NCBI GenBank assembly: GCA_018062445.1
Contig: JAGOSG010000003.1
Span: 29,842-93,841, forward strand
Length of the DNA stretch: 64,000 bases
From: Minisyncoccota bacterium
GTDB lineage: Bacteria > Patescibacteriota > Minisyncoccia > Phycocordibacterales > Phycocordibacteraceae
Direction of reading: 5' to 3'
Shown here: one piece after another, positions 2,998 through 62,614 of the stretch
Numbering within the stretch: position 1 is the stretch's first letter
Layout: the number at the start of each line of letters is the position of its first letter
Translations under genes and position numbers: made by a program
The notes under the pieces: model-generated
Seen by the model: only the letters and a program-made list of their open reading frames with translations
The model's database searches: none
Told to the model about the DNA's origin: nothing

Positions 2998-3005
2998 TGA
3001 AGTTA

Positions 3006-3040
3006 AAAAGCTGGAAGCTGACAGCTGGAACCTGAAACCT
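3006..3040. repeat. family A repeat, right inverted repeat flanking the four-helix-bundle gene
   Basis: aaaagctggaagctgacagctggaacctgaaacct; inverted relative to 2601-2635. Confidence 0.6.
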
Positions 3041-3486: not shown

Positions 3487-3600
3487 AGAGTATAGCGTTT
3501 AGTAGTTAGCGTCTAGTGTTTTTCATCTAGTCATGGCTTCTAAAAACTTTTATAGCCATCGAAGTTAATGGAGTATTTCTTTAGAATTTCCCTAAACTCT
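3487..3600. repeat. family B motif pair in inverted orientation upstream of the PrgI-like gene
   Basis: tatagcgtttagtagttagcgtctagtg ... ccctaaactctatccactaacccc. Confidence 0.45.
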
Positions 3601-4402: not shown

Positions 4403-7400
4403 TTAACTTCCAAAAGTATCCGTGTAAGCCGTCTCTTGTTCAGGAGTTAAGTGTTTCTGTTTACGCATTTCATCTAACCATGCTCGTGCTGAGTCACGTA
4501 TTGTACCCCCTGCTTTTACAGCGCGAATGAGGCCCCAGATAATAGCTCTCATTTTTGCTGGTGCAATGTACGTGTCTGTTTCGATGGCCTTTAGCTGCCT
4601 ACTGTCGAGTTCCTGAATGAAGTCTCTGCTTCCTAACATTTCTTCGGGCAATTCTTTCACAAGTTCAGCTGCTTCTGCTGGTGGAAGGTTATGGATGAGT
4701 GGTGCAATATCTTCGATGACCGTCGGCGTTTCAGGCACAGGAGGTGTCTCAGGGCTTTCTGGTGCTGCGCCTTCAGTCTGTATAGTAGTTGGCGCTGAAC
4801 CCGAAGAAGTTGCTCGACTTCGTAGTGCACTTGCAATACGAGATCGTGGTGTTTCTTCAAATTCGATTTGCCTCTCGATTGGCTGTCGGCTCACGGCAGA
4901 TGCATTCCTCTCCGCTATAGTCTCTATCTCGCTTGTTCGTCCTAGTCGGGACTCAACTTCTTCAAGTGACGCCATACCAAGACGTCTTCGTTCCTCGTTT
5001 ACCCTCTTTCGCATTTCGTCTGTGACCTCGTATTTTGATTGGCCGTCAGGGTTAGTGAGAATCCACTTTATGGCACTCTCATCACCGTAGACCAACATAC
5101 TGACACCCTGGTCTTCCATCCATACCGTATCTTTTGCAAGTCCGTATGCTTGACCAGCGTTAATGTATTTACCCATAAGCCGCTTACCCAAATCTTCCTG
5201 CTTCATTTCGTCTTGGATTTCGTTTGCCGCCTTTCCTTTGGCATATTTGAAGAAGTTATCTTCGGCGGTCTTTCTTTTTTCTGCCGCTCTGCGCACGTCT
5301 TGGTTTCGGCGGATCTTTCTCAGTTGCGCTTCCTGATCGCTCGTTATGATGCCCTTCTCGGTTTGTTCGCGCATTCGTGTATCAAACTCTTTGTCTGAGA
5401 GAGAGTCACCGTTTTCATCAAATGCATTTCTGGAAAGGAGATTTCGTTCCTGTTCACTCAGTCCCCTAGAAATGCTATTGCCTTGTTCATCTTTGTCTTG
5501 GATTGTGATTGTGTTGAAGACAGCGCTCGCTTCATCGTCAATTTTGAAGTTTATGTTTCCACGACGACGCTTGAGTGCACGCAACTTTCGTTTCTTTCCG
5601 CTCGCGATTCTAGAGTTTTTTTGTAGCTGTGTGTAAACCCCACTTGTTATTGCATCGTTGAATATTTCATTTTCCTGTAGACCCATTTCGAGACCTGGGT
5701 TTGACGTAAAGAAGTCAATTAATTCGTCAGCGGAGACGTTTTTCTTAAGCTCCTCATGGAGCCAGTAGCGTTTATCATTATACTCATCGCTGTATCTAAG
5801 TATTTTGCCCGCTGCCTTAGCTTCGTCCGTTAGTCTTCCATCAGCGGTGAGGTATTTTTCGTCTCCTTTCTTTGTGTCGACCGCATCCACGACTCTTGCT
5901 TCAAAGGCTTGGGCTGAAGTCATAACACCACCGAGGCGAGCCATTCGTATCTCGTCTCTTGTTTCACGGTCTATTGTCTTGTCCTTAACGATTTCGAGGG
6001 ACTGTTCTGTGGTGAGTGCTCGTGCCAACCTTTTGAACTCTGCTTTGTTACGTTTGTACTCTTCCTTAATGAGGTCAGTCGAGACATCGGCAAATGGCTG
6101 TTTCAGTTGATCAGTTGCATCGGCCATGGTGAGCATGATTTTCTCTCCATTCTTATCTACTGCCCCCGTATCGAACTTCTCCGTTCGCTTTAAGCGGTCG
6201 TTGTACGCGAATTTATTTTCCCAACCCCAGTTTCCGTCCTTATCTTTTACCCAACGTCTTCCTTCCCAGAGCGGTACGCCGTTCTTATCGATCTTGTTTC
6301 CATTTTGGTCCACCTTATCTCCGTCTTGCTTTCGCTTTGCTGTCCACTCCGCCCTCTCCTCGTCGTTCATCTTGTGCCAGTTTTTAGGAAGACCTGCTTT
6401 CACGAGGTCTTCCTTGCTGGATTTTCCGGTTATCTTTATGTCGTCTTCACCTTTCGCCACTGCCTTGTCGAACGCAGCTTTTACTGTAGCTTCTTGATCG
6501 AGGTGACCTCCTTTTTTTAGAGCATCCTCCTTTTTCTTGACGTAGTCGCTGACATTCGCGAGTTTGATAGTGCGTTGTTCTCTTTGCTCCTTCAAGTCCC
6601 CATAACTTGTCTTGCTACCAAACTTTGCATCTTTAAGAAACTTAGTGCCTTTCTGTATGCCACGGTCAAGAGTGGCGAGTCCTGGAACTTGGTCGAGGCG
6701 TCTTCCGCCAAGGAATCCCCATTCTCTTGCTGCAATTTTCTCTTCGTACCAGTGTCCAAGTTTATCGCCACCAAATCTCCCGATAGTTTCTCGCGCTGTC
6801 ATAGCCCCAACGTTAGTAGTAACCCAATTTGAAGCCTTGTATACATCGGTAAGGCGTTTTGCAGCTTCACTCATACCTTTAGCGATTTTGAGTGACTGCA
6901 ACATAAAGATTACTGCCACCATGAAAGTGAGTAGTGTGCCAATGAGGTTGGGACTTTCTCCGCTGAATGCGCCACTGGAATTATCAAGAATAGTGAGAGA
7001 AAAACCAACAAGAAGAAAGTACACGGGGGCAAAAAATGCCTGACTGAAAAGCGCTTCCCACCACTCCTTGGCGTATCTATTTATTTGCGGGATGGCAAGA
7101 CCGGCTATGCCGATTGGTGAGGTGATGAGAATGAGAATCAATGCGACGAATCGTCCCAATAATAGTGTGATAGCAGACAGAAATACAAATATTGTGATAC
7201 CAATGACTACGATAGCCAAAAGATCTTGCACGATTGCCATCCACTGGGAATCTTGTTTGATATCCCCAACTTTTTCATCTGCCAGATATGCCGCTATGTT
7301 GTGATTGTTGGTCCGGATGACTCTGTCAAAACGAGAAACAATGGTACAGCTCTCCCTACAATTTTCTGTGGATATGGTTGCCTTGTAGATTGCTGTAGCG

Positions 7401-19058: not shown

Positions 19059-19085
19059 GCGGGTATCCTAACATAGACAGGTCAT

Positions 19086-19152
19086 AGGTGTCAGGTTCCA
19101 GCTGTCAGCTTCAAACCTCTCCCTAGAAGCTGAAACCTAGCACCTTGAACCT
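19086..19152. repeat. family A repeat copy (extended)
   Basis: aggtgtcaggttccagctgtcagcttcaaacc...gaagctgaaacctagcacc; upstream of the traR-like start. Confidence 0.6.
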
Positions 19153-22604: not shown

Positions 22605-22694
22605 GTATCTCTTTGTTATGAGATTCGCAGATTTCAGGTTCGGCGAGCCGTCCTGCCTATCTGAGAACCTCGCTTTTAATATGTTGAGTATAGC

Positions 22695-22726
22695 AAAAAA
22701 CGCCTTTTGTGAAAGACGTTTTTTGT
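22695..22726 (-). terminator. hairpin with flanking A/T runs in the NYN-pnp intergenic region (terminator or pnp leader processing hairpin)
   Basis: aaaaaacg-(14-nt loop)-cgtttttt. Confidence 0.3.
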
Positions 22727-22745
22727 AAAGTGTCTGCTGTTACAA

Positions 22746-22788
22746 AAAGCTGAAAGCTGAAAGCTGGAACCTGACACCTGAAAGCTTC
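22746..22788. repeat. family A repeat copy
   Basis: aaagctgaaagctgaaagctggaacctgacacctgaaagcttc; between NYN stop and pnp start. Confidence 0.6.
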
Positions 22789-22792
22789 TCAG

Positions 22793-23416
22793 CTATCTCT
22801 CATCCGTATCTGATCCAACTACCATAGGAGCAGAGTCGTCATCATCGAATGTTCCATGTTTTGGGGCAGTGCCAATTGCTTCTGCTGCCATATCAAGGAA
22901 GTTTTTGCCGTGAGGCATGAGGAACTTTTTAGGTTCTTCCGACATGTCAATAAAGTCGTTTGCGGACTCTATGAGTCGTGCTGAGGATGATTTACCAAAC
23001 GAGATAACTTCCACTTGTGTGCCGTGGCTGTTTTTAAGGTACTCAACGAGCGGTACGAAGTCCCCGTCCCCTGTTGCAAGGATAACGGCATCTAGTTTTG
23101 GAGCCATCTTTACAGCATCAACTGCCATACCAACATCCCAGTCTGCCTTCTTTGCACCACCATAGAAAATTTGGAGATCCTTTGTTTTAGTTTCGATACC
23201 AATTTTTGTCAGTGCATCAAAAAATGCTTTCTCTTCGCCAGATTCTGTTGTCACTACATACGCGACTGCACGAATAAGGATGCGCCCCGCAACTGATTCC
23301 TTTAGAACATTTGCGAAATTGACCCTCGCTTTGTATAAGTTTTTTGCACTGTGATAGAGATTTTGTGTGTCTATGAAGACACCAACCCTCTGTGCTTTGT
23401 GTTTAATTGCTGCCAT
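22793..23416 (-). CDS. NYN-domain (LabA-like) protein
   Basis: RVGVFIDTQNLYHSAK.. N-terminus typical of PF01936. Confidence 0.75.
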   Translation of the reverse strand: MAAIKHKAQRVGVFIDTQNLYHSAKNLYKARVNFANVLKESVAGRILIRAVAYVVTTESGEEKAFFDALTKIGIETKTKDLQIFYGGAKKADWDVGMAVDAVKMAPKLDAVILATGDGDFVPLVEYLKNSHGTQVEVISFGKSSSARLIESANDFIDMSEEPKKFLMPHGKNFLDMAAEAIGTAPKHGTFDDDDSAPMVVGSDTDER

Positions 23417-23420
23417 ATAA

Positions 23421-23456
23421 ATTAGGTTTTAGGTGCTAGCTTCTAGGAACTAGCTT
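23421..23456. repeat. family B leader motif upstream of the NYN gene
   Basis: aaattaggttttaggtgctagcttctaggaactagc; coding sense ..cctaaaacctaatttATG. Confidence 0.5.
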
Positions 23457-23583
23457 AATGAAAATAAGTAATTAATTTAAAAATATCGACCTCTTGAGTG
23501 TAGACGGTCTAAGGTCAGAGTAGCTTACAAGAAGAACGGATATAGCCGTCTCTTCATACTACTCCCCGTTGAGTAAAAAAGAT

Positions 23584-23751
23584 TCAAGCGGTTCCTACGG
23601 TCCTGCGTCGTCGCCCGTCTTTAGTGTCAGGATTCCTAGGCCCACTGATGAGTCTTGCTATAGCATCAAGCGCCTCTTGAGCCCGTTCATTTCGGCGGGC
23701 ACTTCTGAATGATCCGTTACCTTCACTGTGAGATGTTCCTGCTTCTCCCAT
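23584..23751 (-). CDS. possible small ORF (55 aa) in rpsO-NYN gap
   Basis: ATG..TGA frame MGEAGTSHSEGNGSFRSARRNERAQEALDAIARLISGP..; below ORF-track cut-off; no SD. Confidence 0.2.
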   Translation of the reverse strand: MGEAGTSHSEGNGSFRSARRNERAQEALDAIARLISGPRNPDTKDGRRRRTVGTA

Positions 23752-23846
23752 ATTTTTTTGCTTATGAAAATTACTTTCCTAAGCAACAATTATACTACCT
23801 CGGTAGCAAACTCAAAAAACAATTCAGAAGGATAAATGCAGAGAAA

Positions 23847-24113
23847 CTACTTCTTCAAGCCCAAACTCTTGATGACCTTGTTGTATTCCTTTTTGTCGGA
23901 CTTTTCGAGGTATTTGAGGTGGCTTCGTCGGTCAGCAACCATCTGAAGAAGGCCCCGGCGTGAGTGCTTATCCTTGAGGTGCTTGCGGAGGTGTGTGGTT
24001 AATTCACCGATTTGTTTCGTTAAAAGGGCAACTTGAACAGATGCTGAGCCAGTATCAGTCTGGTGTTTCTGTACGGTCTTCATAACCCGTGCTTTCTGCG
24101 TTTTGGTGAGCAT
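23847..24113 (-). CDS. rpsO: 30S ribosomal protein S15
   Basis: MLTKTQKARV..GSASVQVALLT..HSRRGLLQMV..; start taken at the internal Met of the ORF. Confidence 0.9.
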   Translation of the reverse strand: MLTKTQKARVMKTVQKHQTDTGSASVQVALLTKQIGELTTHLRKHLKDKHSRRGLLQMVADRRSHLKYLEKSDKKEYNKVIKSLGLKK

Positions 24114-24156
24114 GTGCGCCAATATACCACGCACTTAGGCTTTTCGCAAGAATATT

Positions 24157-25086
24157 GTGCGAAGTTGGCGTTATACTCTATGGATGGATATTCAGAACCT
24201 GAAACGAGAATTTCTTGAATACATTGAGATCACTAAAGGTCGAAGTATAAAAACTGTTGAAAATTACGACCACTACCTCACTCGCTTCCTCGAATTTTCA
24301 AAAGCGAGTGATGTTGCTGATGTGAGCGAAGAAAAACTTCGTGAATTTCGTTTGTGGCTTAACCGCCAGCCAGGCACAGCTGGCAATATGATGAAACGCA
24401 AAACTCAGAACTACTACCTTATTGCGCTTCGCGCATTTTTAAAATTTCTTGCAAAGCGAGGCATTAAAGCGCTTCCCCCTGAACATATTGAGCTTGCAAA
24501 GGTTCCGGAGCGCTCACTCGACCTCATTACAGCGAACGAATTGGAGCGGTTAATGAAGTCTCCTGTGGGGAATGGAGTAAAAGAGCTCCGTGACAGAGCC
24601 ATTATGGAAATGTTTTTCTCAACCGGGCTTCGTGTCTCCGAATTATGTGCACTTGATACTGATTTAGACCTTTCTCGTGATGAACTCTCTGTTCGCGGAA
24701 AAGGCGATAAAGTGCGTGTAGTGTTTCTCTCCCCTACCGCAAAGACCAGCGTGTCTGCGTATTTAAAAGCACGAAAAGATATGGCCGAAGCTTTGTTTGT
24801 TCGACATAGTACGGGGAAGAAAATTCCTTCACGTCTCACCCCTCGCTCTATAGAGAATATTATAAAAAGTTGTGCCATTAAGGCAGGTATTACAAAAAAA
24901 GTTACCCCTCACGTCATTCGCCACTCGTTTGCCACTGATCTTTTGGAAAATGGTGCTGATTTACGTAGCGTTCAAGCCCTTTTAGGTCATGCAAATATTG
25001 CCACTACGCAGATTTATACGCACGTTACCGACAAGCACCTCCTCGATGTACATAAGGCGTTTCATGGAAAGAAAAGAGTGAAGTAA
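24157..25086 (+). CDS. xerD: tyrosine site-specific recombinase XerC/XerD family
   Basis: SAM-like N-domain; catalytic R..HxxR..Y (RHSFATDLLENGADLRSVQALLGHANIATTQIYTHV). Confidence 0.85.
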   Translation: MRSWRYTLWMDIQNLKREFLEYIEITKGRSIKTVENYDHYLTRFLEFSKASDVADVSEEKLREFRLWLNRQPGTAGNMMKRKTQNYYLIALRAFLKFLAKRGIKALPPEHIELAKVPERSLDLITANELERLMKSPVGNGVKELRDRAIMEMFFSTGLRVSELCALDTDLDLSRDELSVRGKGDKVRVVFLSPTAKTSVSAYLKARKDMAEALFVRHSTGKKIPSRLTPRSIENIIKSCAIKAGITKKVTPHVIRHSFATDLLENGADLRSVQALLGHANIATTQIYTHVTDKHLLDVHKAFHGKKRVK

Positions 25087-25099
25087 CATGTTTTGAAGT

Positions 25100-25897
25100 A
25101 TGAAACTCATATCGTGGAACGTGAACGGCATTCGGGCAGTCCATAGGAAGGATCTCTTCGTACCGTTTGTAGAGAAATACAAGCCAGACATTCTCTGTTT
25201 GCAAGAAACAAAGGCAGAACAGCACCAGTCAGAAGTGGATTTGCCTGAGTATGAGGAATATTGGAATTCAGCCACGAAGAAAGGCTATGCAGGCACAGCA
25301 ATTTTCACCCGCATGAAACCCAAGAGTGTTCTTCTCGACTTTCCAAGCGACATTGTTTCAAAGTTTGCATTCAAAGATTCGTACGGCGACACTAATAGCG
25401 AAGGCAGGGTACTTGCCCTTGAATTTGAGAAGTTTTTTGCAGTAACGGTTTACACACCAAATTCTAAACCTGACCTAAGTCGTTTAAAGCTTCGCCACTC
25501 TGTGTGGGATACGGCCTTTCTTTTGTATATGAAGCAATTAGAAAAGAAAAAGCCAGTTATTTTTTGTGGTGACTTGAATGCAGCACACACTGAAGATGAC
25601 CTTGCAAATCCGAAAGCAAATGAGGGTGAGCACGGATTCACTAAGGAAGAGCGAGAAGGAATTGATTCTATTATCAAGGCGGGTTTTGTTGATTCATTTA
25701 GGATATTTACGAAAGGGAAAGGACACTATAGTTGGTGGAGTCATTTTGCAAAGTCTCGCGAGCGAAATGTTGGCTGGCGTATTGATTACTTTTTTGTTAG
25801 CAAAGCCCTTGCACCTTCTGTAAAAAAAGCAGAAATCCTCCCACAAGTTTTAGGCTCTGACCATTGCCCTGTCACCCTCGAAATCAAGATCGAATAG
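25100..25897 (+). CDS. xth: exodeoxyribonuclease III
   Basis: MKLISWNVNGIRA..LCLQETK; ExoIII/APE fold, 265 aa. Confidence 0.9.
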   Translation: MKLISWNVNGIRAVHRKDLFVPFVEKYKPDILCLQETKAEQHQSEVDLPEYEEYWNSATKKGYAGTAIFTRMKPKSVLLDFPSDIVSKFAFKDSYGDTNSEGRVLALEFEKFFAVTVYTPNSKPDLSRLKLRHSVWDTAFLLYMKQLEKKKPVIFCGDLNAAHTEDDLANPKANEGEHGFTKEEREGIDSIIKAGFVDSFRIFTKGKGHYSWWSHFAKSRERNVGWRIDYFFVSKALAPSVKKAEILPQVLGSDHCPVTLEIKIE

Positions 25898-26281
25898 AAT
25901 GTGCCCGATATAGGTGTTTCCCGTTCTGTGCAACCTCCGGAGGTTGCACAGAAGAGCCTCAAACGAATATAGGTAAACGATATGCACAGGGTAAAGCTAG
26001 GAATTCCTAAAGGACAGGAGATAATCATATAGGACAGTTCTTTCCTGAGGCAGATCAGAAGCCCAAGTTATACGCGCTTTCAAAAAACATTGATAAAGAG
26101 GCGCTATAAAGGCATCTGCCCTTAAAGGCTCGCTATACGGGGATTCCGTACAGCGGGCTTTTTCTATAGGACATGAGTAGGAGTTGCTGTTTCTATTTTC
26201 ACTAAACTCTAGTCACTAAGTGATCCCCGTGGATCTGACGAAGCCTGTTCCCTACGGAACCGACGAAGCGTCGCCTGCTTC

Positions 26282-27745
26282 TTATACATGGTGCTTTGCT
26301 CTGATTTCTTCAAGTTCTTTCTCTTCCGCCTTTTCACGAGCTTTTTTCCCCTCTTCCCCCATCTCTTTGAGCGTGGAATCCTCCATTAGTGACAGAATCT
26401 GAACTTTTTCTTCCAGATATTCTTTCGTATTCTTTTTGGGGTCTTCTAGCACCTCTTCTAGTAATGCGTGCAATATCCAACCAACTCGAGGCCCTGGTTT
26501 TTCACCGAGGATTTTTATAACGGATTCTCCATTAACTGCCAGCATGGCAACCGAGATAGGATCACGAAGCGCCTCATCCACCATTGATTTATATTTACGA
26601 AAACGAAATGGCTGCTCCTTAGGGCGACCAGTACCAATGCGGTCGCAGATACGGAGATTCAGGAGGTCCCAAATATTTTCCTGCCCAACATTAACTATCA
26701 TGCGCCTAACGGCTGAAAGTGTAATTTTGTCAGGGTCTGAAAAGAACATGTGCCAGCGCACCAGCTTAGTCGTTTTTTCAATGATTTCGTTTGGGAATTT
26801 TAAATCTTGAAGAGCCCGTTTTGCCACTCGAGCACCAACCACTTCATGTCCATGGAATGTCCAATCCTTTTTTTCATCAGACCACCGCCTAGTTTCTGGT
26901 TTTGAGATGTCATGGAAAAGCGCAGCAAGGCGGATGATAAACGGCCACTCTTTGTCAGCAGCATGTTGCATGGCGCGAAGCAGGTGTTCGAATACATCGA
27001 ATGAGTGTGCCTGATTTTGTCCTATGCCAATTCCCCGCTCGATGTCTGGTGCAATATATTTCAAAAGCCCAAGTTTATGGGAAAGAAAGATTGCTTGCAT
27101 CGGCGTGGCAGTTTCAAGAATACGAATAAATTCATCACGGATTCTTTCTTTAGATATTTTTTCAAGTTGTGGAGCATTTGCGTGCAAGGCCTCAGCCGTC
27201 TCTTGTTCAATAGCAAACCCTAGTTCTGCCGAAAGACGAACGCCACGCATCATGCGAAGAGCATCTTCTTGAAAGCGTGCACTAGGGTTTCCTACGGCTT
27301 TAATTAAGCATTTTTTTATGTCTTCATGGCCCCCGTGCAGATCCACCATCTCCCCTGTTTTTGGTCGATATGCGATGGCGTTCACTGTAAAATCTCTCCG
27401 TTTTAAATCTTCCTCCAGAGAAACACCAAACTCCACACTGTCGGGTCTTCGGGCATCTGAGTAGGTGCCTTCTTTGCGGTATGGTGTGACCTCAATAACC
27501 TTAAGTGTTGGGTCTTCCGACTCCCCTACTACGCCGACAGTTCCATATGTATTTTCATAGAAAGTTTCTGGAAATATTTTCTGTATCTCTTCAGGTGTTG
27601 CATTTGTTGTAAGATCCCAATCTTTCGGTTTTTTCTCAAGAATAATGTCACGAACGCAACCTCCAACTAGGTATGCTTCAAAGCCGGTATTCTCAAGGCC
27701 ATCAGCAACGAGCAGTACTTCTTTTGGAATTGCTAATTTCGTCAT
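26282..27745 (-). CDS. cca: CCA tRNA nucleotidyltransferase with HD domain
   Basis: GGCVRD nucleotidyltransferase motif and C-terminal HD domain. Confidence 0.85.
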   Translation of the reverse strand: MTKLAIPKEVLLVADGLENTGFEAYLVGGCVRDIILEKKPKDWDLTTNATPEEIQKIFPETFYENTYGTVGVVGESEDPTLKVIEVTPYRKEGTYSDARRPDSVEFGVSLEEDLKRRDFTVNAIAYRPKTGEMVDLHGGHEDIKKCLIKAVGNPSARFQEDALRMMRGVRLSAELGFAIEQETAEALHANAPQLEKISKERIRDEFIRILETATPMQAIFLSHKLGLLKYIAPDIERGIGIGQNQAHSFDVFEHLLRAMQHAADKEWPFIIRLAALFHDISKPETRRWSDEKKDWTFHGHEVVGARVAKRALQDLKFPNEIIEKTTKLVRWHMFFSDPDKITLSAVRRMIVNVGQENIWDLLNLRICDRIGTGRPKEQPFRFRKYKSMVDEALRDPISVAMLAVNGESVIKILGEKPGPRVGWILHALLEEVLEDPKKNTKEYLEEKVQILSLMEDSTLKEMGEEGKKAREKAEEKELEEIRAKHHV

Positions 27746-27815
27746 AGGCTCATTGTACGATAGGAACTTGGCACTCTAGTGGCTCGAGTATAAGAAAATT
27801 TCTGTGTGAAATTTA

Positions 27816-27975
27816 ATTGTACTCCCGGAGGGATTCGGTCACGCATAATTTTCCTCTGAAAATTTTAGCTAAGCCTCTCGGCACGATTTTCTAATCGCCC
27901 GCCTCACTCGCCTTCGCTCGCTCCGGCTTTCGAATCCCTCCGCAACATAGCAAAATCTGCTAACGCCGATTTTTT
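27816..27975 (-). ncRNA. tRNA-Arg-associated structured element (family of 3)
   Basis: Immediately 3' of tRNA-Arg on the minus strand; contains hairpin tagcagattttgcta, core ggagggattcgaaagccggagcg, and ends gtgaccgaatccctccgggagt, a copy of the tRNA-Arg T-arm/acceptor 3' end. Confidence 0.4.
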
Positions 27976-27978
27976 ATG

Positions 27979-28050
27979 TGCTCCCGGAGGGATTCGAACC
28001 CCCAACGACTGCTTCGAAGGCAGTTATGATATCCATTTCACTACAGGAGC
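27979..28050 (-). tRNA. tRNA-Arg (anticodon TCG)
   Basis: Manual fold: acceptor gctcctg/cgggagc, anticodon loop cTTCGAa, T-arm ggggg-ttcgaat-ccctc. Confidence 0.85.
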
Positions 28051-28172
28051 AACTGTTCTATCCTACGCTACACATTCGCTTCAAACAAATACCCCTTCAA
28101 AAGAAGGTCGGTGTTCTTGTAGAGCGTTCCCCTAGTCTCACTGACTCGAAGTGTGCTATAAATAAGCACATT

Positions 28173-28243
28173 GCGGGTATGGTTTAGTGGTAGAATGCGT
28201 CCTTGCCAAGGACGAGACTCGGGTTCGATTCCCGATACCCGCA
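28173..28243 (+). tRNA. tRNA-Gly (anticodon GCC)
   Basis: Acceptor gcgggta/tacccgc, anticodon loop tTGCCaa, T-loop ttcgatt; CCA not encoded. Confidence 0.9.
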
Positions 28244-28265
28244 CAAAAAATGAAGTTTTTTGTGC
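28242..28265 (+). terminator. hairpin with flanking A/T runs after tRNA-Gly
   Basis: cacaaaaaa-tgaag-ttttttgtg; the 5' arm is the tRNA 3' end. Confidence 0.5.
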
Positions 28266-28412
28266 GGGTATAGCAAGCCATTTGTTTGGCTTGCGTAAGG
28301 GAATCGAAGCGCGGAGCGATGTTTCCCGTTGCGGGAAACCGTGAGCGGGGGTTGCGACCGAGGCGAACATGGGTGAGCCGAGAGTTGTAACCGATTCCCG
28401 ATACCCGCACCA
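28264..28412 (+). ncRNA. tRNA-Gly-associated structured element (family of 3)
   Basis: Starts gcgggtat (same as tRNA-Gly 5' end), hairpin agcaagcca..tggcttgc, core gtaagggaatcgaagcgcggagcg, internal hairpin gtttcccgttgcgggaaac, ends gtaaccgattcccgatacccgcaCCA (21-nt copy of the tRNA-Gly 3' end plus encoded CCA). Confidence 0.45.
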
Positions 28413-28705
28413 ATTTTTATGTCAGCAGAGATAGTAGACTTTGAGTCGGCTCGCAGGAGTGACTTGTGGCGCAAGGCCCGCCCTCTAGTTGGCGCTCAAA
28501 TTATTCTTACTTTGAAGTGTTGGCGTGACAAGCCCAATAAACCAATCTCCAGGTTTCATTTACTTGGCACAGGAGTCAGTACATCTGGTAGACCAAGTTT
28601 ATTTGTACAAGCAGGCAGAGTCACTACATCGATAGCTATAGGCTTCGATGAGATAGACCGCATCGATTTTGAAAGTTGGGGTAAGGATGTTCCATAAGAA
28701 ACGCG

Positions 28706-28717
28706 TTTCACGTGAAA
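28706..28717. promoter_or_regulatory. perfect palindrome TTTCACGTGAAA (copy 1)
   Basis: 12-bp palindrome, repeated 151 bp downstream at the yraN start. Confidence 0.35.
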
Positions 28718-28856
28718 TATATGACCTTTATAGACGTTTTTGTGGATAACACTGTGCCTTATGTGTATAAAGGACATAATGTATTGTCCATGAATATGCC
28801 TCTAATCATTTAAATGGCTTTAAATAAAGGTTTATTGTAAAAGACAAATTTAGTAG

Positions 28857-28868
28857 TTTCACGTGAAA
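28857..28868. promoter_or_regulatory. perfect palindrome TTTCACGTGAAA (copy 2), abutting the yraN start codon
   Basis: Identical 12-mer ending 2 nt before the ATG at 28870. Confidence 0.35.
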
Positions 28869-28869
28869 C

Positions 28870-29271
28870 ATGGCTAAGCATAATGAAGTAGGAAAAATTG
28901 GAGAGGGTATAGCGAAGGAATTCCTTATGGGAAAAGGGTTTATATTTGTATCTGCAAACTACCGTAAACCATATGGAGAAATAGACCTTATCTTCAAGGA
29001 CATCTCAAATAAGTATGTATTTATTGAGGTTAAGAGTGTTTCATGGGAAACGCCCACCACAGGCAATCCTTCTGTTTCCCATGAAACACCTCACCCAGAG
29101 GAGAATATTCATCCCCAGAAGATTCAAAGATTGAAGCGAGTTATACAAACCTACCTTGTTTCACATGAAATAGTGGGGGATTGGCAGTTTGATGTCATTG
29201 CAGTTTTTCTTGATCAGAAAAACCAAAATGCCAAAATCAGGCATTTAAAAAATATTATCTTAGAGACTTAA
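28870..29271 (+). CDS. yraN: YraN family (UPF0102) endonuclease-like protein
   Basis: GEIDLIF.D....VFIEVK motif. Confidence 0.75.
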   Translation: MAKHNEVGKIGEGIAKEFLMGKGFIFVSANYRKPYGEIDLIFKDISNKYVFIEVKSVSWETPTTGNPSVSHETPHPEENIHPQKIQRLKRVIQTYLVSHEIVGDWQFDVIAVFLDQKNQNAKIRHLKNIILET

Positions 29272-29282
29272 ATCAAACTTAG

Positions 29283-29353
29283 TCGGGGCGCCGAGAATCG
29301 AACTCGGTCTATCTGCTCCCAAAGCAGACGTACTACCGGTATACTACGCCCCG
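29283..29353 (-). tRNA. tRNA-Pro (anticodon TGG)
   Basis: Minus-strand fold: acceptor cggggcg/cgccccg, anticodon loop tTTGGGa, T-loop ttcgatt. Confidence 0.85.
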
Positions 29354-29575
29354 AGGCGAGGAAGAGAATGGGTGCTCGCACACATTCTTTCCGAGACGAA
29401 GGGGCGAAAACTTGGCTTCCAAGTTTACAACCCGAGACATCTCCGGAACGGAGAAGCGAACCTCCCCTCCCGTTTCACCTCAGACAATACCACTTTTTTC
29501 AAAAAAAAGCTCTTCTGTTAAGTAGAGATTCTATGTCCTTTAGAAAATTAAGCATAGTGTTGCTATACTGCCCAA

Positions 29576-30952
29576 ATGAGACCAACCACCTCCTTTGATT
29601 CATTCTCACCAATCGATTATCGATACTGGGACGAATCACTTTCTCCGTATTTTTCTGATAGGGGATTTTTAGACTATAAAATGCAAGCAGAAATTGCTCT
29701 TTTAAAGGCGCTTGAGAAACACAAGATGTGCCCGGCCTCTGTTGTTCAGGAAGTAGAAATCGCATGCAAATCTGTTACCTCTGAAGAAGTATATGAGGAA
29801 GAGGAGCGTATCAAGCACGACATTCGAGCGCTGGTGAATGTGATTCGTTCAAAAGTGTCTGACAGTGCAAAGCCATTTGTACATATGACGGCTACATCGT
29901 ATGACATTATTGATACGGCAAACGCTGCGCGATTTCGTGATGCAACACAGAAAGTTCTCGTTCCTGCACTGAAAGATCTTGAAAAAGTACTCATTGATTT
30001 AACTCTTCGTGAAGCAGGCACAGTACAGGTCGGGCGTACGCATGGACAGCATGCGGTTCCCATAACATTTGGTTTTGCACTGTCAGGCTACGTGAGTCGT
30101 TTAGGTGTCTGCATCGAAGCGCTTGATGCTCTTGCGAAAGAGCTTCGAGGAAAGTTTTCCGGTGCAGTTGGTGCATACAACGCATCATCACTTTTCTTTG
30201 ATGACCCTGAGGGTTTTGAGAATGATGTACTCACAGGGCTAGGTCTCCAAGCTTCAGAGCAATCAACACAAGTTACACAACCAGAGCCAATGGCGCGTTT
30301 GATGGCAGAGGTTTCTATTACTCTCGGTGTACTCGCCAATCTTTCTGATGATATGCGCGCACTACAGCGTACAGAAATAGGGGAGATAGGGGAGGAATTT
30401 GAAGCTTCTCAAGTTGGATCTTCAACGATGCCACAAAAGAGAAACCCTATAAATTTTGAAAATGTAAAAAGTATTTGGAAAATAGTAATGCCTCGCGTTG
30501 TAACTATTTTTCTAGACCAAATTAGTGAGCATCAACGAGACCTCACCAATTCGGCTTCGTCTCGTACCTATGGTGAGTCAATCGCATACACCTTGTCTGC
30601 GGTGAAGCGTTTAACTAAGACAATGTCGAAGTTGAAGGTAGACATGGGTAATCTTGAAAAAAATCTTGCCCTTGGTCGTGGATCGGTCGCTGCGGAACCC
30701 CTCTACATTATCCTCGCGTCTCTAGGGCATCCTGATGCGCATGAAAAAGTTCGAAATCTTACGCTCACTGCAGGACAGGAAGGGAAGGGGTTAGAAGAAG
30801 TGGCACTAAGTGATGCTGAAATGGCGCCATATCTTTTGCGGATGACTGAAGCACAGAAAAATATACTTAAAAATCCATCCTTATATACAGGAATCGCAGA
30901 GAAAAAGGCGAAAGCGGTTGCTGAAAATTGGCACAAAAGATTGTCACTTTAA
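29576..30952 (+). CDS. purB: adenylosuccinate lyase
   Basis: Fumarate-lyase signature GSSTMPQKRNPINFEN (PurB-type SSxMPxKxNPIxFEN). Confidence 0.8.
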   Translation: MRPTTSFDSFSPIDYRYWDESLSPYFSDRGFLDYKMQAEIALLKALEKHKMCPASVVQEVEIACKSVTSEEVYEEEERIKHDIRALVNVIRSKVSDSAKPFVHMTATSYDIIDTANAARFRDATQKVLVPALKDLEKVLIDLTLREAGTVQVGRTHGQHAVPITFGFALSGYVSRLGVCIEALDALAKELRGKFSGAVGAYNASSLFFDDPEGFENDVLTGLGLQASEQSTQVTQPEPMARLMAEVSITLGVLANLSDDMRALQRTEIGEIGEEFEASQVGSSTMPQKRNPINFENVKSIWKIVMPRVVTIFLDQISEHQRDLTNSASSRTYGESIAYTLSAVKRLTKTMSKLKVDMGNLEKNLALGRGSVAAEPLYIILASLGHPDAHEKVRNLTLTAGQEGKGLEEVALSDAEMAPYLLRMTEAQKNILKNPSLYTGIAEKKAKAVAENWHKRLSL

Positions 30953-35670: not shown

Positions 35671-35725
35671 ATTTTTTTATTAGATTTGTATTTTTTATTC
35701 GTTTATTTTTCCCTTCTACTTTGTG

Positions 35726-35757
35726 TATGTATCACTGTAGTACTACAGTGATACATA
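35726..35757. promoter_or_regulatory. perfect 32-bp palindrome TATGTATCACTGTAGTACTACAGTGATACATA (copy 1)
   Basis: Exact self-complementary 32-mer about 55 nt upstream of the zinc-ribbon/hisG start; identical copy at 36378. Confidence 0.6.
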
Positions 35758-36051: not shown

Positions 36052-36375
36052 TTATTTTTTATGCAGTCGAGAAATGATGGTGCTGTATCCGCCCCGTCCA
36101 TGGTGGAGCCAATGGGAAACACGACTCACTGTCGTAGTTGATGCACCTGTTTCGTCTGCTGCGTTGCGGTAGGAAACATCTTTGGTAAGGAGGCGAGCAA
36201 TAGCAAAACGCTCAGCAAACGCTTCCAGCTCTGCCTTAGTGCAAAGGTCACGCATGAATGCAGAACACTCCTCACGATTTTTTAGTGAAAGAAAGGCAGT
36301 ATATAAAGCCTCTAGGTTTTGCTTCGAACCTGAGGTTTTTGCAGAGGCTTTGTTTGTGGTGTTCACTCTATTCAT
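36052..36375 (-). CDS. TrpR/YerC/YecD-family DNA-binding protein
   Basis: HTH LTKDVSYRNAADETGASTTTVSRVS resembles Trp-repressor family; start taken at internal Met so the CDS begins 3 nt downstream of palindrome copy 2. Confidence 0.6.
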   Translation of the reverse strand: MNRVNTTNKASAKTSGSKQNLEALYTAFLSLKNREECSAFMRDLCTKAELEAFAERFAIARLLTKDVSYRNAADETGASTTTVSRVSHWLHHGRGGYSTIISRLHKK

Positions 36376-36377
36376 GG

Positions 36378-36409
36378 TATGTATCACTGTAGTACTACAG
36401 TGATACATA
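36378..36409. promoter_or_regulatory. perfect 32-bp palindrome (copy 2), putative autoregulatory operator
   Basis: Identical to 35726-35757; immediately upstream of the TrpR-like gene. Confidence 0.6.
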
Positions 36410-36533
36410 CTGTAGCAGAGAGATGTAGATGAAGTCAAGTTGGGCGGAAACGGGGCTAGGTTGGGGGCAGATGATGTCGAGCCGAAAGCAGATGTTGCCT
36501 TAAAGACCTTTTGTGTCTTGGGAAGATAGATTG

Positions 36534-37694: not shown

Positions 37695-37706
37695 CTTGTT
37701 AGTTTA

Positions 37707-37735
37707 CAGGTGCTAGGTGTCAGGTTCCAGCTTTT
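37707..37735. repeat. family A repeat copy
   Basis: caggtgctaggtgtcaggttccagctttt; 13 nt upstream of the protease start. Confidence 0.55.
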
Positions 37736-37786
37736 GGAGTCAATGCTTCTGGCTTTAAGCGCTTAGTTTTGATAGAGTTGAGCAAC

Positions 37787-37857
37787 GCGGGATTAGTTTA
37801 ATGGTAGAACATCAGTTTTCCAAACTGATAGCAAGGGTTCGATTCCCTTATCCCGCA
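37787..37857 (+). tRNA. tRNA-Trp (anticodon CCA)
   Basis: Acceptor gcgggat/atcccgc, anticodon loop tTCCAaa, T-loop ttcgatt. Confidence 0.85.
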
Positions 37858-37866
37858 CCTTAATTA

Positions 37867-37895
37867 AAATGACCCGCTTTCTGCGGGTCATTTTA
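37867..37895 (+). terminator. intrinsic terminator after tRNA-Trp
   Basis: aaaatgacccgc-tttc-tgcgggtcatttt. Confidence 0.55.
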
Positions 37896-37906
37896 ATTTA
37901 CGGATA

Positions 37907-38058
37907 GCGGGATGAGTGAGCAAATGGCTTTGCTCACGTAGGGAATCGAAAAGCGCAGGCATATTTTTGTTTGCGTTTCGCAAGGCAAAAATGCCGAGCT
38001 GGGGTCGCGAGAAATTTCCGTCAGGAAATTTACTTGTGACCGATTCCCTTATCCCGCA
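37907..38058 (+). ncRNA. tRNA-Trp-associated structured element (family of 3)
   Basis: Starts gcgggat (same as tRNA-Trp 5' end), hairpin gagtgagcaaa..tttgctcac, core gtagggaatcgaaaagcgcagg, nested hairpins, ends gtgaccgattcccttatcccgca (copy of the tRNA-Trp 3' end). Confidence 0.45.
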
Positions 38059-38065
38059 CCCATTT

Positions 38066-38093
38066 AAAAACCCCGCCATTAGGCGGGGTTTTT
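38066..38093. terminator. bidirectional intrinsic terminator
   Basis: aaaaaccccgcc-atta-ggcggggttttt, between the Trp element and the hup 3' end. Confidence 0.6.
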
Positions 38094-38116
38094 AAATGAA
38101 ACTTTCTTCCTAAAAG

Positions 38117-38389
38117 TTACTTCACCGCATCCTTAAGACCCTTTGCTGCACGGAATTTTGGTACGCGCATAGAAGGAACCTTAATGCTCTCGCCAGTGCG
38201 AGGATTACGACCAGTTCTAGCTGGGCGCATCTTTGTTGAGAAGATACCCAATCCTGCGATTGATACCTCATCGCCTTTCTTAAGGGCAGCAATAATAGAA
38301 TCAACTACGGTTTCAACAACAGCCTCAGACTGTGTCTTAGTACCGCCGAGCATATCGTGAACTTTTCCTGCGAGATCTGCTTTATTCAT
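38117..38389 (-). CDS. hup: HU family DNA-binding protein
   Basis: MNKADL..GLGIFSTKMRPARTGRNPRTGE..; 90 aa. Confidence 0.9.
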   Translation of the reverse strand: MNKADLAGKVHDMLGGTKTQSEAVVETVVDSIIAALKKGDEVSIAGLGIFSTKMRPARTGRNPRTGESIKVPSMRVPKFRAAKGLKDAVK

Positions 38390-44945: not shown

Positions 44946-45476
44946 CTATGCGGGGAACTTTTCTTTGTAGAGTCCCAAGGATTTTGCAAATGCTTCCTTC
45001 GCCTCTTTTGCTCCTTTGAACCCTTGGATATCAACAACATTTTCTTTTCCTTTGAGCTGTTTGTATGTCTCGAAAAAGTGTTGGATTTCTTTGATGGTGT
45101 GCTTGTTTACATCAGCAAGGTCTTTCACCTCGTCCCAGCGCTTATCTTTCACAGGCACTCCGAGTACTTTGAAATCTGATTCGCCATCGTCAATCATTTC
45201 CATGACTGCTACAGGACGTACTTTTACAAGAATGCCGGGGTGAATAGGAAAGGTAGAAAGCACCATAACATCGAGTGCGTCGCCATCATCCCAGAGTGTC
45301 TTTGGTACAAAACCGTAGTCAACTGGATATGGGGCGGATGAGTAGTTCGCTCGATCAAGTTTAATGAGTCCTGTTTCTTTATCGATCTCGTATTTATTGT
45401 GTGAACCCTTAGGAATTTCAATAATGACATTTATCTCGTCTGCAGTACCTGGGTCTATGTCGTGCCAAAGATTCAT
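44946..45476 (-). CDS. ppa: inorganic pyrophosphatase
   Basis: Family I PPase motifs (DGDALDVMVL, EIPKGS.NKYE). Confidence 0.9.
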   Translation of the reverse strand: MNLWHDIDPGTADEINVIIEIPKGSHNKYEIDKETGLIKLDRANYSSAPYPVDYGFVPKTLWDDGDALDVMVLSTFPIHPGILVKVRPVAVMEMIDDGESDFKVLGVPVKDKRWDEVKDLADVNKHTIKEIQHFFETYKQLKGKENVVDIQGFKGAKEAKEAFAKSLGLYKEKFPA

Positions 45477-45479
45477 AAA

Positions 45480-45520
45480 TTAGGTTTTAGTGATTAGGGT
45501 ATAGAGTTTAGTGTATCAAG
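45480..45520. repeat. family B leader motif upstream of ppa
   Basis: aaattaggttttagtgattagggtatagagtttagtgtatc; the same aaattaggttttag start as at the NYN gene. Confidence 0.5.
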
Positions 45521-45522
45521 AA

Positions 45523-46770
45523 TTACGCGTCAGCTTTTTCTACTGATTGCTCAATGGGAGCTTCTTCGATTGCTTCGGTTTCTGCCTCACCAACCTCTTT
45601 ATCTTCAGGAGAAGAGAGTTCTTCTGCTGATAGTCCGACTGCGCCACCTTCATTTTCGCTCACCGCTACTGCTGTTCCGCCAACAGGGCGGATGTCGATT
45701 GACCAGCCAGTTAGTTTGGCGGCGAGGCGTACATTTTGACCACCGCGACCAATAGCAAGAGATTGCTGGTCTTCTGATACCTCGGCAACTGCACGGTGTG
45801 TTTCTTCATCAAGTTCAATTGAAAGAATTTGAGCAGGGGAGAGTGCGTCTTCAATAAATTGCTTTATTTCTTCTGACCATTCGATGATATCGATGCGTTC
45901 ACCTCCGAGTTCACTCATGACTGTTGAAACACGAACACCTCTCTGACCTACAAGTGCACCCACTGGGTCGATGCGTGAATCAGTTGCGTGTACGGCAACT
46001 TTTGAGCGACCACCAGCTTCACGAGCAATTGCTTTTATAACAACGGCGCCACTTGCGATTTCAGGTACTTCAAGTTCAAAAAGTTTTTCCAAGAATTTTG
46101 GATGTGCTCGGGACAAACGCAAGAATACTCCACGCACCCCTTCTTCAACTGAGAAGAGGTATGCGCGAACACGCTCACCCGCACGGTAACGCTCACCGGG
46201 GATTTGCTCGTGGTATGGCATGATGCCCGTTGCACGACCCAAGTCGACATACAGGTTTCCACGCTCAATGCGTTGCACGATGCCGTGAACGATATCGCCT
46301 TCTTTTCCGCCGTATTCTTCAACAACTGAAGCTCGTTCTGCTTCACGAATTTTCTGCATGATGACTTGCTTCGCGGTTTGTGCGGCAATGCGTCCGAAGT
46401 CAGTCTTTTTTTCTAGAGGAAATATGAGTTCGTCACCCACAGCAACATCTCTTTTAATTCTCTTTGCATCTTCAAGGAAAAGGAAACGCTCTTCGTTGTA
46501 GTGAGGACGATCGTCGCCTTCTTCTACGGGCGATTCGTCGCCGTCCATACGAACCTCTTCAGGTGCGACAACCATTTTTACTTGGTAGAAATCAACACCA
46601 CCCGTTGAAATATCAAAATGTGCGCGAACTATTTGGTCACGCTTTCCGTACTCACGCTTATAGGCAGTTGCAACAGCACCTTCAATGGCTTCTATCATTT
46701 TGTCACGAGGGATACCTCGCTCTTCAGAGAGTTGTTCGATGACGAGGTTTATTGTTTTTAGGTCAAACAT
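45523..46770 (-). CDS. nusA: transcription termination/antitermination factor NusA
   Basis: N-terminal domain, S1 and two KH domains. Confidence 0.9.
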   Translation of the reverse strand: MFDLKTINLVIEQLSEERGIPRDKMIEAIEGAVATAYKREYGKRDQIVRAHFDISTGGVDFYQVKMVVAPEEVRMDGDESPVEEGDDRPHYNEERFLFLEDAKRIKRDVAVGDELIFPLEKKTDFGRIAAQTAKQVIMQKIREAERASVVEEYGGKEGDIVHGIVQRIERGNLYVDLGRATGIMPYHEQIPGERYRAGERVRAYLFSVEEGVRGVFLRLSRAHPKFLEKLFELEVPEIASGAVVIKAIAREAGGRSKVAVHATDSRIDPVGALVGQRGVRVSTVMSELGGERIDIIEWSEEIKQFIEDALSPAQILSIELDEETHRAVAEVSEDQQSLAIGRGGQNVRLAAKLTGWSIDIRPVGGTAVAVSENEGGAVGLSAEELSSPEDKEVGEAETEAIEEAPIEQSVEKADA

Positions 46771-53012: not shown

Positions 53013-53090
53013 TACTAGTAGGGGTTAGGGTTTAGAGATTAGCGTTTAGGGAAAATTCCAATTCAAAGCTCTTTCCTAAACCCTTCTCAA
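53013..53090. repeat. family B motifs in both orientations upstream of tpiA
   Basis: ggggttagggtttagagattagcgtttaggg ... ctttcctaaaccc. Confidence 0.5.
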
Positions 53091-59537: not shown

Positions 59538-59578
59538 ATGGGTGAGGGTATAGCGTTTAGGGGATAGGGTTTAGGGAA
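59538..59578. repeat. family B leader motif upstream of sodA
   Basis: atgggtgagggtatagcgtttaggggatagggtttaggg. Confidence 0.5.
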
Positions 59579-59623
59579 ACATCTTCTGAGTAGCTACTCT
59601 AGCCTTGGTGCCATTATATCATT

Positions 59624-60971: not shown

Positions 60972-61010
60972 AGAGTTTAGTTATTAGCCACTAGGGTTTA
61001 GGGACGATTC
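60972..61010. repeat. family B leader motif upstream of rpmB
   Basis: gagtttagttattagccactagggtttagggacg. Confidence 0.45.
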
Positions 61011-61017
61011 CTATTGG

Positions 61018-61734
61018 CTAGTTACTCTTCTCTAGGTACGCAACAATGGTACGACGCTTCCATGCACTTCCGTCAGCATGCTTGTGTTTGAAAGATTTTT
61101 CGATTTTGTGGATAGTGAAATAGGGCTCGAAGAACTCGCGCAGTGCCTCTTCTGTCCACACATATTCAGCCGTGTGTATTTCTGGGTGAATGTACATTCC
61201 CACCTCATCTCCTGGGCTTTCGCGAAGTAGGCGCTTGGCATGAGAATCGTCATCAAGAAGGAACGATTTAAAGAAAAGCCACCCTCCTGGTTTTAAGACA
61301 CGGAGTATTTCAGTTCGTAATTGTTCCCGTCCGGCAGTCTTCAAAACATGCGAGCTCATCATGTCGAGAGTGATAGTGACTGATGCATCTGGCAAGGGAA
61401 TTGGCTTCTCCATATCTTGTACAAAAAATTTGATAGGCAAACCTTCGCCTGCTTTTTTGGCGACAGTGATTGCTACTTCTGAAAGATCGTACCCGACGCC
61501 GCGCATACCAAATGTGTTTGCAAGATATATGAGGTTGCGTCCGTTACCGCATCCAATATCAAGTGCCTGTGCGGTTACATTAAGGAATTTTTTTCCATAT
61601 TCGCGCATCAAGAATCTTCCGAACTTTTCCAAGTCTTCAGATGGTTCGACAGAGAGTGCAAGGTGAGGATTTGCACCACCAGTGCGGTCTGATTTACCGT
61701 ATTCTTTATTCCAGAAATTGTTTTGTCGACTCAT
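61018..61734 (-). CDS. class I SAM-dependent methyltransferase
   Basis: ALDIGCGNGRN motif I; VLKPGGWLF post-I. Confidence 0.8.
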   Translation of the reverse strand: MSRQNNFWNKEYGKSDRTGGANPHLALSVEPSEDLEKFGRFLMREYGKKFLNVTAQALDIGCGNGRNLIYLANTFGMRGVGYDLSEVAITVAKKAGEGLPIKFFVQDMEKPIPLPDASVTITLDMMSSHVLKTAGREQLRTEILRVLKPGGWLFFKSFLLDDDSHAKRLLRESPGDEVGMYIHPEIHTAEYVWTEEALREFFEPYFTIHKIEKSFKHKHADGSAWKRRTIVAYLEKSN

Positions 61735-61737
61735 GAG

Positions 61738-61775
61738 AGTAGCTGTCAGGTTCTAGGTGTCAGCTTTCAGCTTTA
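61738..61775. repeat. family A repeat copy
   Basis: agtagctgtcaggttctaggtgtcagctttcagcttt; directly upstream of the methyltransferase ATG. Confidence 0.6.
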
Positions 61776-61798
61776 AATCTGAAATTTAACCTCTTTAA

Positions 61799-62539: not shown

Positions 62540-62560
62540 AGTGCGAGTGTAGCATCGAAG

Positions 62561-62614
62561 AGCTTTCAGGTGCCAGCTTTCAGCTTGGGTTAAAACCTGA
62601 CACCTATAACCTGA
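62561..62614. repeat. family A repeat copy in a divergent promoter region
   Basis: agctttcaggtgccagctttcagcttgggttaaaacctgacacctataacctga; between the rlmB and M50 protease starts. Confidence 0.6.

Follow-up and report, generated by a model that had tools for sequence, protein, structure and literature searches.

A recurrent tRNA- and tmRNA-linked element with arms matching the adjacent gene end and a predicted three-way junction in Patescibacteria and Elusimicrobia

Within the window, i.e., the entire 64-kb stretch of DNA analyzed here, a tRNA gene at positions 37787-37857 (+ strand) is followed by a spacer hairpin, a 152-nt element (37907-38058, +; termed c1) and a second hairpin, beyond which lies the convergent ORF of an HU gene (38117-38389, minus strand). 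An initial reading of the sequence alone had assigned the tRNA to tryptophan. Instead, ARAGORN and Rfam (RF00005, 76.4 bits) identify it as tRNA-Gly(UCC), with the 7-nt anticodon loop TTTCCAA and the anticodon TCC. It is the only tRNA called by both searches at this locus, none being called over 37907-38058, and neither detects a tmRNA in the 64-kb window. The spacer hairpin (37866-37894, +), AAAATGACCCGC-TTTCT-GCGGGTCATTTT, was recognized by sequence inspection as terminator-like, with a T-run and A/T runs on both sides, and comparable spacer hairpins are present in relatives. The hairpin that follows c1 (38061-38098) was found in a terminator scan and is bidirectional, terminator-like and common to the c1 side and the convergent HU gene.

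The element had been described as bracketed by two terminators, which was taken to suggest a discrete transcription unit. Both hairpins exist, the first with its T-run, but this first one is not called by the terminator scan and the second also serves the HU gene. The notion of a discrete unit was not borne out, as the promoter search that had been proposed found no sigma-70-type promoter within c1 or between the two hairpins, and the downstream terminator is shared. Across 106 copies of the family described below, -10-like hexamers show no positional enrichment upstream of the element, and the sequence TATATT is found 4-6 nt ahead of the 5' arm only in a subset of copies of one architecture (type B, see below). 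An own sigma-70 promoter was thus rejected. Transcription of the element would proceed in the tRNA sense and would come mostly from transcripts that run on past the tRNA.

The element c1 starts 50 nt past tRNA-Gly(UCC). Its first 7 nt, GCGGGAT (37907-37913, +), constitute the outer part of the 5' arm; they equal the 5' acceptor strand of tRNA-Gly(UCC) and are the reverse complement of ATCCCGC at 38051-38057. The family-conserved hairpin hp1 (37914-37937, +; GTGAGCAAA / TTTGCTCAC), which shows a compensatory G/C swap in the copy of a relative, separates this outer part from the inner part of the 5' arm, AGGGAATCG (37940-37948, +). The latter is the reverse complement of tRNA positions 56-64 and has its partner at 38041-38049. 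The conserved interior (37949-38040, +) was delineated by a MAFFT alignment, RNAalifold, pair counts and a covariance model (R1) and forms a predicted three-way junction. It is composed, on the + strand, of AAA, the short helix P_a (37952-37954 with 37998-38000), a GNA/GA internal loop, the P_b hairpin (37958-37995), GGG and the P_c hairpin (38004-38040), which ends in GTGAC. The 3' arm (38041-38060, +) is a direct copy of tRNA positions 56-73 plus CC, identical at 20 of 20 nt (repeat family D9) to the original at 37840-37859 (+). The 3' terminus of c1 itself, CGATTCCCTTATCCCGCA, completes this perfect 20-nt repeat together with the next CC. The predicted fold of c1 has an energy of -81.8 kcal/mol (z = -9.5 against shuffled sequences). 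Only 181 nt lie between the two direct repeats and the neighbors are a peptidase gene and the HU gene; an integrase gene or a larger island is absent between the repeats, and no integrase is found in or near the units.

The 152-nt element with its conserved blocks is thus present as initially reported, and its ends fit the adjacent tRNA and not the tRNAs of the other two copies, its last 20 nt being 100% identical to 37840-37859. The observation is genuine and lies far outside what chance would produce. It was also correctly taken as the third copy of one element family: covariance model R1 recovers three copies in the window and no others (91.7, 68.9 and 62.8 bits), and the next match reaches 13 bits. 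The copy c2 (28264-28409, +; 68.9 bits) has arms of the Gly-GCC type and lies 19 nt downstream of tRNA-Gly(GCC) (28173-28244); a CCA follows it. Both c1 and c2 contain perfect 7-bp acceptor-like helices plus the discriminator. The copy c3 (about 27820-27942, minus strand; 62.8 bits) lies downstream of tRNA-Arg(UCG) (28050-27978, minus strand), from which its 3' arm differs by one mismatch. The claim that all three copies have the same architecture holds insofar as they belong to a common family, but c3 lacks the 5' acceptor strand and its 5' arm pairs with just 12 nt of its 3' arm. A gene of the CCA-adding enzyme/poly(A) polymerase family (26282-27745, minus strand) begins approximately 75 nt downstream of c3 on the same strand, so that c3 could be located in the leader of this gene.

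To capture further members, a pattern common to the three window copies (GGGAWTCGAA ... GTRACCGAWTCCC) was used to scan 185,579 species genomes, which yielded at least 118 loci compared with approximately four expected by chance according to our own estimate. Five matches (L011, L055, L075, L093 and L105) were discarded as family members, being chance or antisense-tRNA matches without the interior consensus, though L075 and L011 still score weakly with model R1 (29.1 and 25.7 bits). Among the matches listed, nearly all hosts are Patescibacteria (Saccharibacteria, Paceibacteria, Kaiserbacteria, Nomurabacteria, Gracilibacteria and others) and Elusimicrobia, with a few from assembled genomes that carry doubtful labels. 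In this same set of listed matches, the element shares its strand with a tRNA that ends 20-90 nt ahead of it, approximately 19 tRNA isotypes are represented (including Ala, Arg, Asn, Cys, Gln, Glu, Gly, His, Leu, Lys, Met, Pro, Ser, Trp, Tyr and Val), and the 18-nt 3' arm from C56 to the discriminator is identical at 18 of 18 nt to the upstream tRNA in 45 of 82 cases.

Model R1, built from a MAFFT alignment of 115 copies, recovered about 30 further copies in the collected loci that had been missed by the pattern. These follow tRNAs with other T-loops, and both of their arms are altered to suit: in Leu-linked copies, TTCAAGTCTCC is accompanied by the arms GAGACTTGAA and GTGACCAAGTCTCC, and in Val-linked copies, TTCGAGTCCC is accompanied by the arms GGGACTCGAA and GTGACCGAGTCCC. 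Six copies (L026, L037, L061, L072, L102 and L117) are situated 50-70 nt downstream of a tmRNA gene and exhibit tmRNA-type arms; the best-scoring copy of the family is tmRNA-linked. In the collected loci, which form an ascertainment-biased set, 76 of 157 tRNAs have their positions 56-71 copied again (in at least 14 of 16 nt) no more than 450 nt farther downstream, and GTGAC immediately precedes the copy in 61 of these 76.

No Rfam family matches any copy, as searches at gathering and permissive thresholds return only tRNAs and terminator-driven noise, and none of the known Rfam ribozyme models matches c1 at E <= 10. One Saccharibacteria locus (L004) carries a LOOT RNA (RF03000, 72.7 bits) at its positions 6513-6628. 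Carriage of the family by phages was rejected, since a search of 2.9 million viral contigs gave 0 matches. The literature search returned no description of the family and surfaced only the work on Escherichia coli tRNA-linked repeats. The family is a widespread, unannotated, tRNA- and tmRNA-linked predicted structured RNA.

The consensus of the family reads (5' arm) GGGAWTCG AAA G-N-C GNA (P_b) GA G-N'-C GGG GTCGCG (P_c) ..GTGAC CGAWTCCC (rest of 3' arm), with an interior of approximately 95 nt that forms the conserved three-way junction and has GTGAC at its 3' end. Two architectures can be distinguished. In type A, which includes c1 and c2, the hairpin hp1, often with a CUGC loop, divides the 5' arm into an acceptor and a T-stem part, whereas in type B the 5' arm is unbroken and an hp1-like hairpin lies ahead of it. 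RNAalifold, applied to a structure-blind alignment, predicted 20 base pairs, 13 of which show compensatory changes; the counts for one such pair are, for example, CG 53, GC 34, AU 13 and UA 3. Standard pairs occupy 93.2% of the cells (71.5% in shuffled alignments), and 502 cells are changed on both sides (165 when shuffled). The covariation score of 0.532, compared to 0.154 for shuffled data, was reached by none of 500 shuffles and dropped to at most 0.07 in a control in which the partners were slid by 1-3 columns. Compensatory changes are also found between close relatives. The tRNA-sense strand contains 87 G.U but only 36 A.C pairs and is therefore the folded strand. This strand-biased tolerance of G.U pairs fits RNA, and a single-stranded DNA intermediate that tolerates G.T pairs would fit as well.

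The identity between tRNA and 3' arm begins at C56 and its length peaks at 18-22 nt, that is, 0-4 nt beyond the discriminator. The 5' arm corresponds to the reverse complement of the last ~20 bp of the upstream gene, extending from T-loop position 54/56 through the discriminator into 1-4 trailer bases. Accordingly, the four bases ahead of the 5' acceptor strand complement the discriminator and the encoded trailer (TTGT for A|CAA, TTGA for T|CAA and TTGG for C|CAA). The tmRNA-linked copies are informative in this respect: the 5' end of the tmRNA is GGGGATG with a G3.U70 pair, whereas the linked elements exhibit GGAGATG (A3-U70). The A3 at the position of the tmRNA G3 identifies the 5' arm as the reverse complement of the 3' gene end, and its origin as a copy of the gene's own 5' end was ruled out. 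An origin from mature tRNA, by retro-copying or in the manner of a primer-binding site, was likewise discarded. A CCA that is present in the element but absent from the tRNA gene was found in just 2 of 40 cases, which argues against mature tRNA as the source of the arms, and it is the encoded trailer CAA, not CCA, that finds its partner in the 5' arm. What the arms reproduce is the genomic sequence with its trailer and not the CCA end of a mature tRNA. Among 40 tRNA genes followed by an intact copy, 18 have CAA and eight have CCA as the three bases behind the discriminator, and the element repeats them.

The element had originally been interpreted as a mimic of tRNA ends. The ends of c1 do match those of the tRNA, with a 7-bp acceptor-like helix, but in the family the 5' arm mirrors the 3' end of the gene, the discriminator and trailer are often paired, and a T-loop is missing. 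Many members consequently have no free NCCA-like tail, which weakens this interpretation. No more than about 37 of 106 copies still have the canonical 5' acceptor strand. Decay of one arm is independent of that of the other: at least 12 of 34 copies with a diverged or truncated 3' arm retain a 5' arm with 7/7 Watson-Crick complementarity to the tRNA, and many other copies combine a perfect 3' arm with an unrecognizable outer 5' arm.

Comparisons between closely related strains revealed a pronounced turnover. Three of the collected loci (L046, L059 and L122) belong to Parcubacteria bacterium Greene0714_7, which is approximately 93% identical to window positions 22684-30589. Its element behind tRNA-Gly(GCC) is the positional orthologue of c2, yet it carries hp1 and the interior of c1 (94% interior identity). 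Five changes in 108 nt separate it from c1, among them a compensatory change of A-T to G-C and the aforementioned G/C swap in hp1, and both of its arms are of the local Gly-GCC type. A third c1-like interior (93% over 116 nt) is found in this organism in a tandem array behind tRNA-Val(GAC), where the truncated copy carries the Val-type block GTGAGGGATTCGAA and has a local 5' T-stem complement and a decayed 3' arm.

A similar picture emerges from ten syntenic loci whose HU protein is identical to that of the window. In all ten, tRNA-Gly(UCC) adjoins the HU gene, whereas the content between them varies and consists of one to three copies that can be different, tandem, truncated or interrupted. 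One of these loci has a c1-type copy identical to that of the window, another (L124) combines a c2-type interior with Gly-UCC arms, and several (L120, L127 and L128) have two tandem copies with degraded arms. In L121 and L122, the copies are interrupted by an insertion with a small ORF. Here, the Gly-UCC-linked element is cut directly after GGGAATCGAAAGGC (L121 ~2850-3150 and L122 ~2880-3150, minus strand), and the inserted segment contains TTGACA with a -10-like promoter sequence and an ORF of about 51 amino acids. The 3' flank of the tRNA thus also gathers small gene cassettes.

Interiors of copies behind different tRNAs in one assembled genome are 86-92% identical, and a tmRNA-linked and a tRNA-Cys-linked copy share 93% of their interior but differ in hp1 and arms. 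Tandem arrays are present in L010, L063, L110, L120 and L128, with identical tandem pairs in L110 and L010. Together, the comparisons of strains and loci lead to the conclusion that interiors move or swap between loci faster than the flanking genes diverge, while the arms are always local. A clean pair of empty and filled sites was not found among the loci compared.

Repeats linked to tRNA genes have been known in E. coli since 1978, and neither their function nor their origin has been explained. A total of 22 units at ten loci, in arrays of one to five, have been reported, with a terminal stretch of 18-19 bp that repeats the 3' end of the preceding tRNA or rRNA (5S) gene without mismatch and with no known function (PMC8144298). 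These repeats (RttR/RtT RNA, Rfam RF00391; RrA/B/F) resemble the present family in several ways. Both closely follow a tRNA gene (in E. coli also a 5S gene) in the same orientation, both occur singly or in short tandem arrays, and both end in a copy of the upstream gene end, as seen for the 20 of 20 nt of c1 and the fully identical 18-nt arms in 45 of 82 matches listed. In addition, an upstream complement, GGGGAAGGAT, closes the fold of the E. coli tyrT units. In contrast to the family, the copied segment in E. coli starts at about position 58 and includes CCA, and the fold of the tyrT unit is weak (z = -1.06), whereas the family has a strongly covarying three-way junction, is linked to some 19 isotypes plus tmRNA and occurs in other phyla. 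Homology to RttR was rejected: RF00391 does not match c1 at E <= 10 or c2 and c3 at E <= 0.01, and R1 misses all four tyrT units tested. As the two share the same logic while homology is undetectable in either direction, the family can be regarded as a larger and structurally conserved representative of the tRNA-linked-repeat kind and not as a member of RtT.

As the best explanation, to which we assign somewhat better than an even chance, c1 would be one copy of a multi-copy cassette that occurs at tRNA and tmRNA genes in Patescibacteria and Elusimicrobia, encodes a structured RNA, recombines and is possibly mobile. This explanation unites the established linkage to tRNA and tmRNA genes, the architecture, the selection on structure and the turnover between close strains. 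In this model, the two arms would close the fold, with selection acting on the inner helix and the junction. The arms would be made from the DNA of the local gene when a copy is formed or renewed, the inverted 5' arm acquiring local sequence as well, and would be perfect at that time; their outer parts would then drift, while the inner, T-region helix would be kept by selection. Interiors would be swapped between loci via the conserved blocks. Candidate processes for the arms are duplication or unequal exchange between the 20-bp direct repeats, which would both make and remove tandem units, and templated correction of quasi-palindromes (the tRNA end with the 5' arm, or the 5' arm with the 3' arm). 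A dedicated mechanism might consist of an integrase-type insertion at the segment from T-loop to 3' end, or of one in which the 5' arm serves as guide and the target becomes duplicated. At the loci inspected, no associated protein such as a recombinase or a reverse transcriptase was noticed. The rapid turnover of the copies points to an element that is selfish or accessory and not to an RNA essential for the host.

The perfect acceptor-like helices and discriminators of c1 and c2, the conserved RNA structure, the proximity to a tRNA on the same strand, the CCA after c2 and the gene for a CCA-adding enzyme next to c3 would also suit a host small RNA. Its closing helix would mimic the acceptor/T minihelix of the cognate tRNA, so that it might be processed, stabilized, charged or titrate enzymes acting on tRNA ends (RNase P, RNase Z, CCA-adding enzyme, possibly a synthetase). 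Some members indeed share an acceptor-like closing helix with the tRNA-like domains of tmRNA and of the bacterial Y RNA YrlA, but the family has no analogue of the D-loop, and no model of these RNAs matches it. We consider such a host RNA unlikely, as a 95-nt insert takes the place of the T-loop and its 3' half is paired, pairing of the 5' arm frequently extends over discriminator and trailer so that no NCCA is left free, and most copies have lost the canonical 5' acceptor strand. Moreover, tmRNA-linked copies have A3-U70 and not G3.U70, the determinant for AlaRS, and copies are truncated and swapped between near-identical strains. A different origin is conceivable in which integrase-type mobile elements that target the T-loop-to-3'-end segment of tRNA and tmRNA genes left the cassette behind as a relic or miniature, with a displaced attR fragment as its 3' arm. 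Such a block is reportedly the hallmark of att sites within genes of these two types, and the identity block from the T-loop to 0-4 nt beyond the gene agrees with it, as do the use of both types of genes, the tandem arrays and the polymorphism between strains. Unlike att sites of integrative elements, however, the units comprise only 150-200 bp with no integrase in or near them and have an added inverted copy. A plain att relic explains neither this inverted local copy nor an interior that covaries across phyla, and matches to viral contigs are missing; this origin is therefore held to be improbable.

An exact antisense of the gene end including its trailer could alternatively serve as a guide. 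In such a self-targeting mobile RNA or DNA, the 5' arm would direct insertion to the 3' end of the gene, insertion would duplicate 20 bp, and the interior would act as a scaffold for an enzyme supplied in trans. The conserved scaffold, the copies that keep the 5' arm fully complementary to the tRNA (7/7 in at least 12) despite a decayed 3' arm of their own, and the tandem arrays expected from re-use of a duplicated target would be in line with this proposal. Many copies with an intact 3' arm, however, have no recognizable outer 5' arm, the guide would be sequestered in the closing helix, no partner protein was seen and no empty site is documented, which makes the proposal distinctly improbable. 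Folded single-strand recombination sites such as integron attC offer a further point of comparison. These, too, are imperfect hairpins with arms that are inverted copies of the core of a primary site, and they share with the family a structure that is conserved above sequence, strand-specific folding and the occurrence in arrays. In the family, by contrast, the arms are 18-22 nt long and tRNA-specific, the sequence of the interior is conserved and no integron integrase is present. In its most far-reaching form, a mobile interpretation would posit that a new class of mobile element is specific for the ends of tRNA and tmRNA genes in Patescibacteria and Elusimicrobia, with a ~95-nt scaffold made of RNA (or of single-strand DNA that folds), a guide arm antisense to the last 20 bp, target-duplicating insertion and a trans-acting enzyme. 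We regard this form as speculative and give it only a small chance; if true, the same logic would explain the E. coli tRNA-linked repeats.

Whichever process shapes the arms, the cassette family, with copies numbering in the hundreds, constitutes a far larger and structurally conserved counterpart of the E. coli repeats in at least two phyla of small-genome bacteria, for which Rfam has no model. It provides a comparative system for how direct and inverted copies of an adjacent tRNA end arise, and one in which to ask whether such units are selfish cassettes or RNAs acting on tRNA ends, and what binds the junction. For annotation, it is relevant that metagenome-assembled genomes may have such elements mislabeled as tRNA fragments, att sites or terminators.

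The window contains further repeats. Three families with a 7-base period (AGCTGTC/AGGTTCC/AGCTTTC..., TTAGGGT/TTAGAGA/TTAGCGT...) occupy short intergenic gaps, mostly directly upstream of a start codon, and may be leader or translation-initiation elements: D1 (2600-2637, 19077-19114, 37706-37743, 61732-61783 and 62552-62589), D2 (3487-3521, 45475-45523, 53020-53054, 59545-59579 and 60972-61006) and D3 (65-110, 2997-3042 and 22736-22781). Finally, two identical copies of a perfect 33-nt palindrome, GTATGTATCACTGTAGTACTACAGTGATACATA (35725-35757 and 36377-36409), flank an ORF for a Trp-repressor-like protein (36052-36438, minus strand) and look like putative operators.
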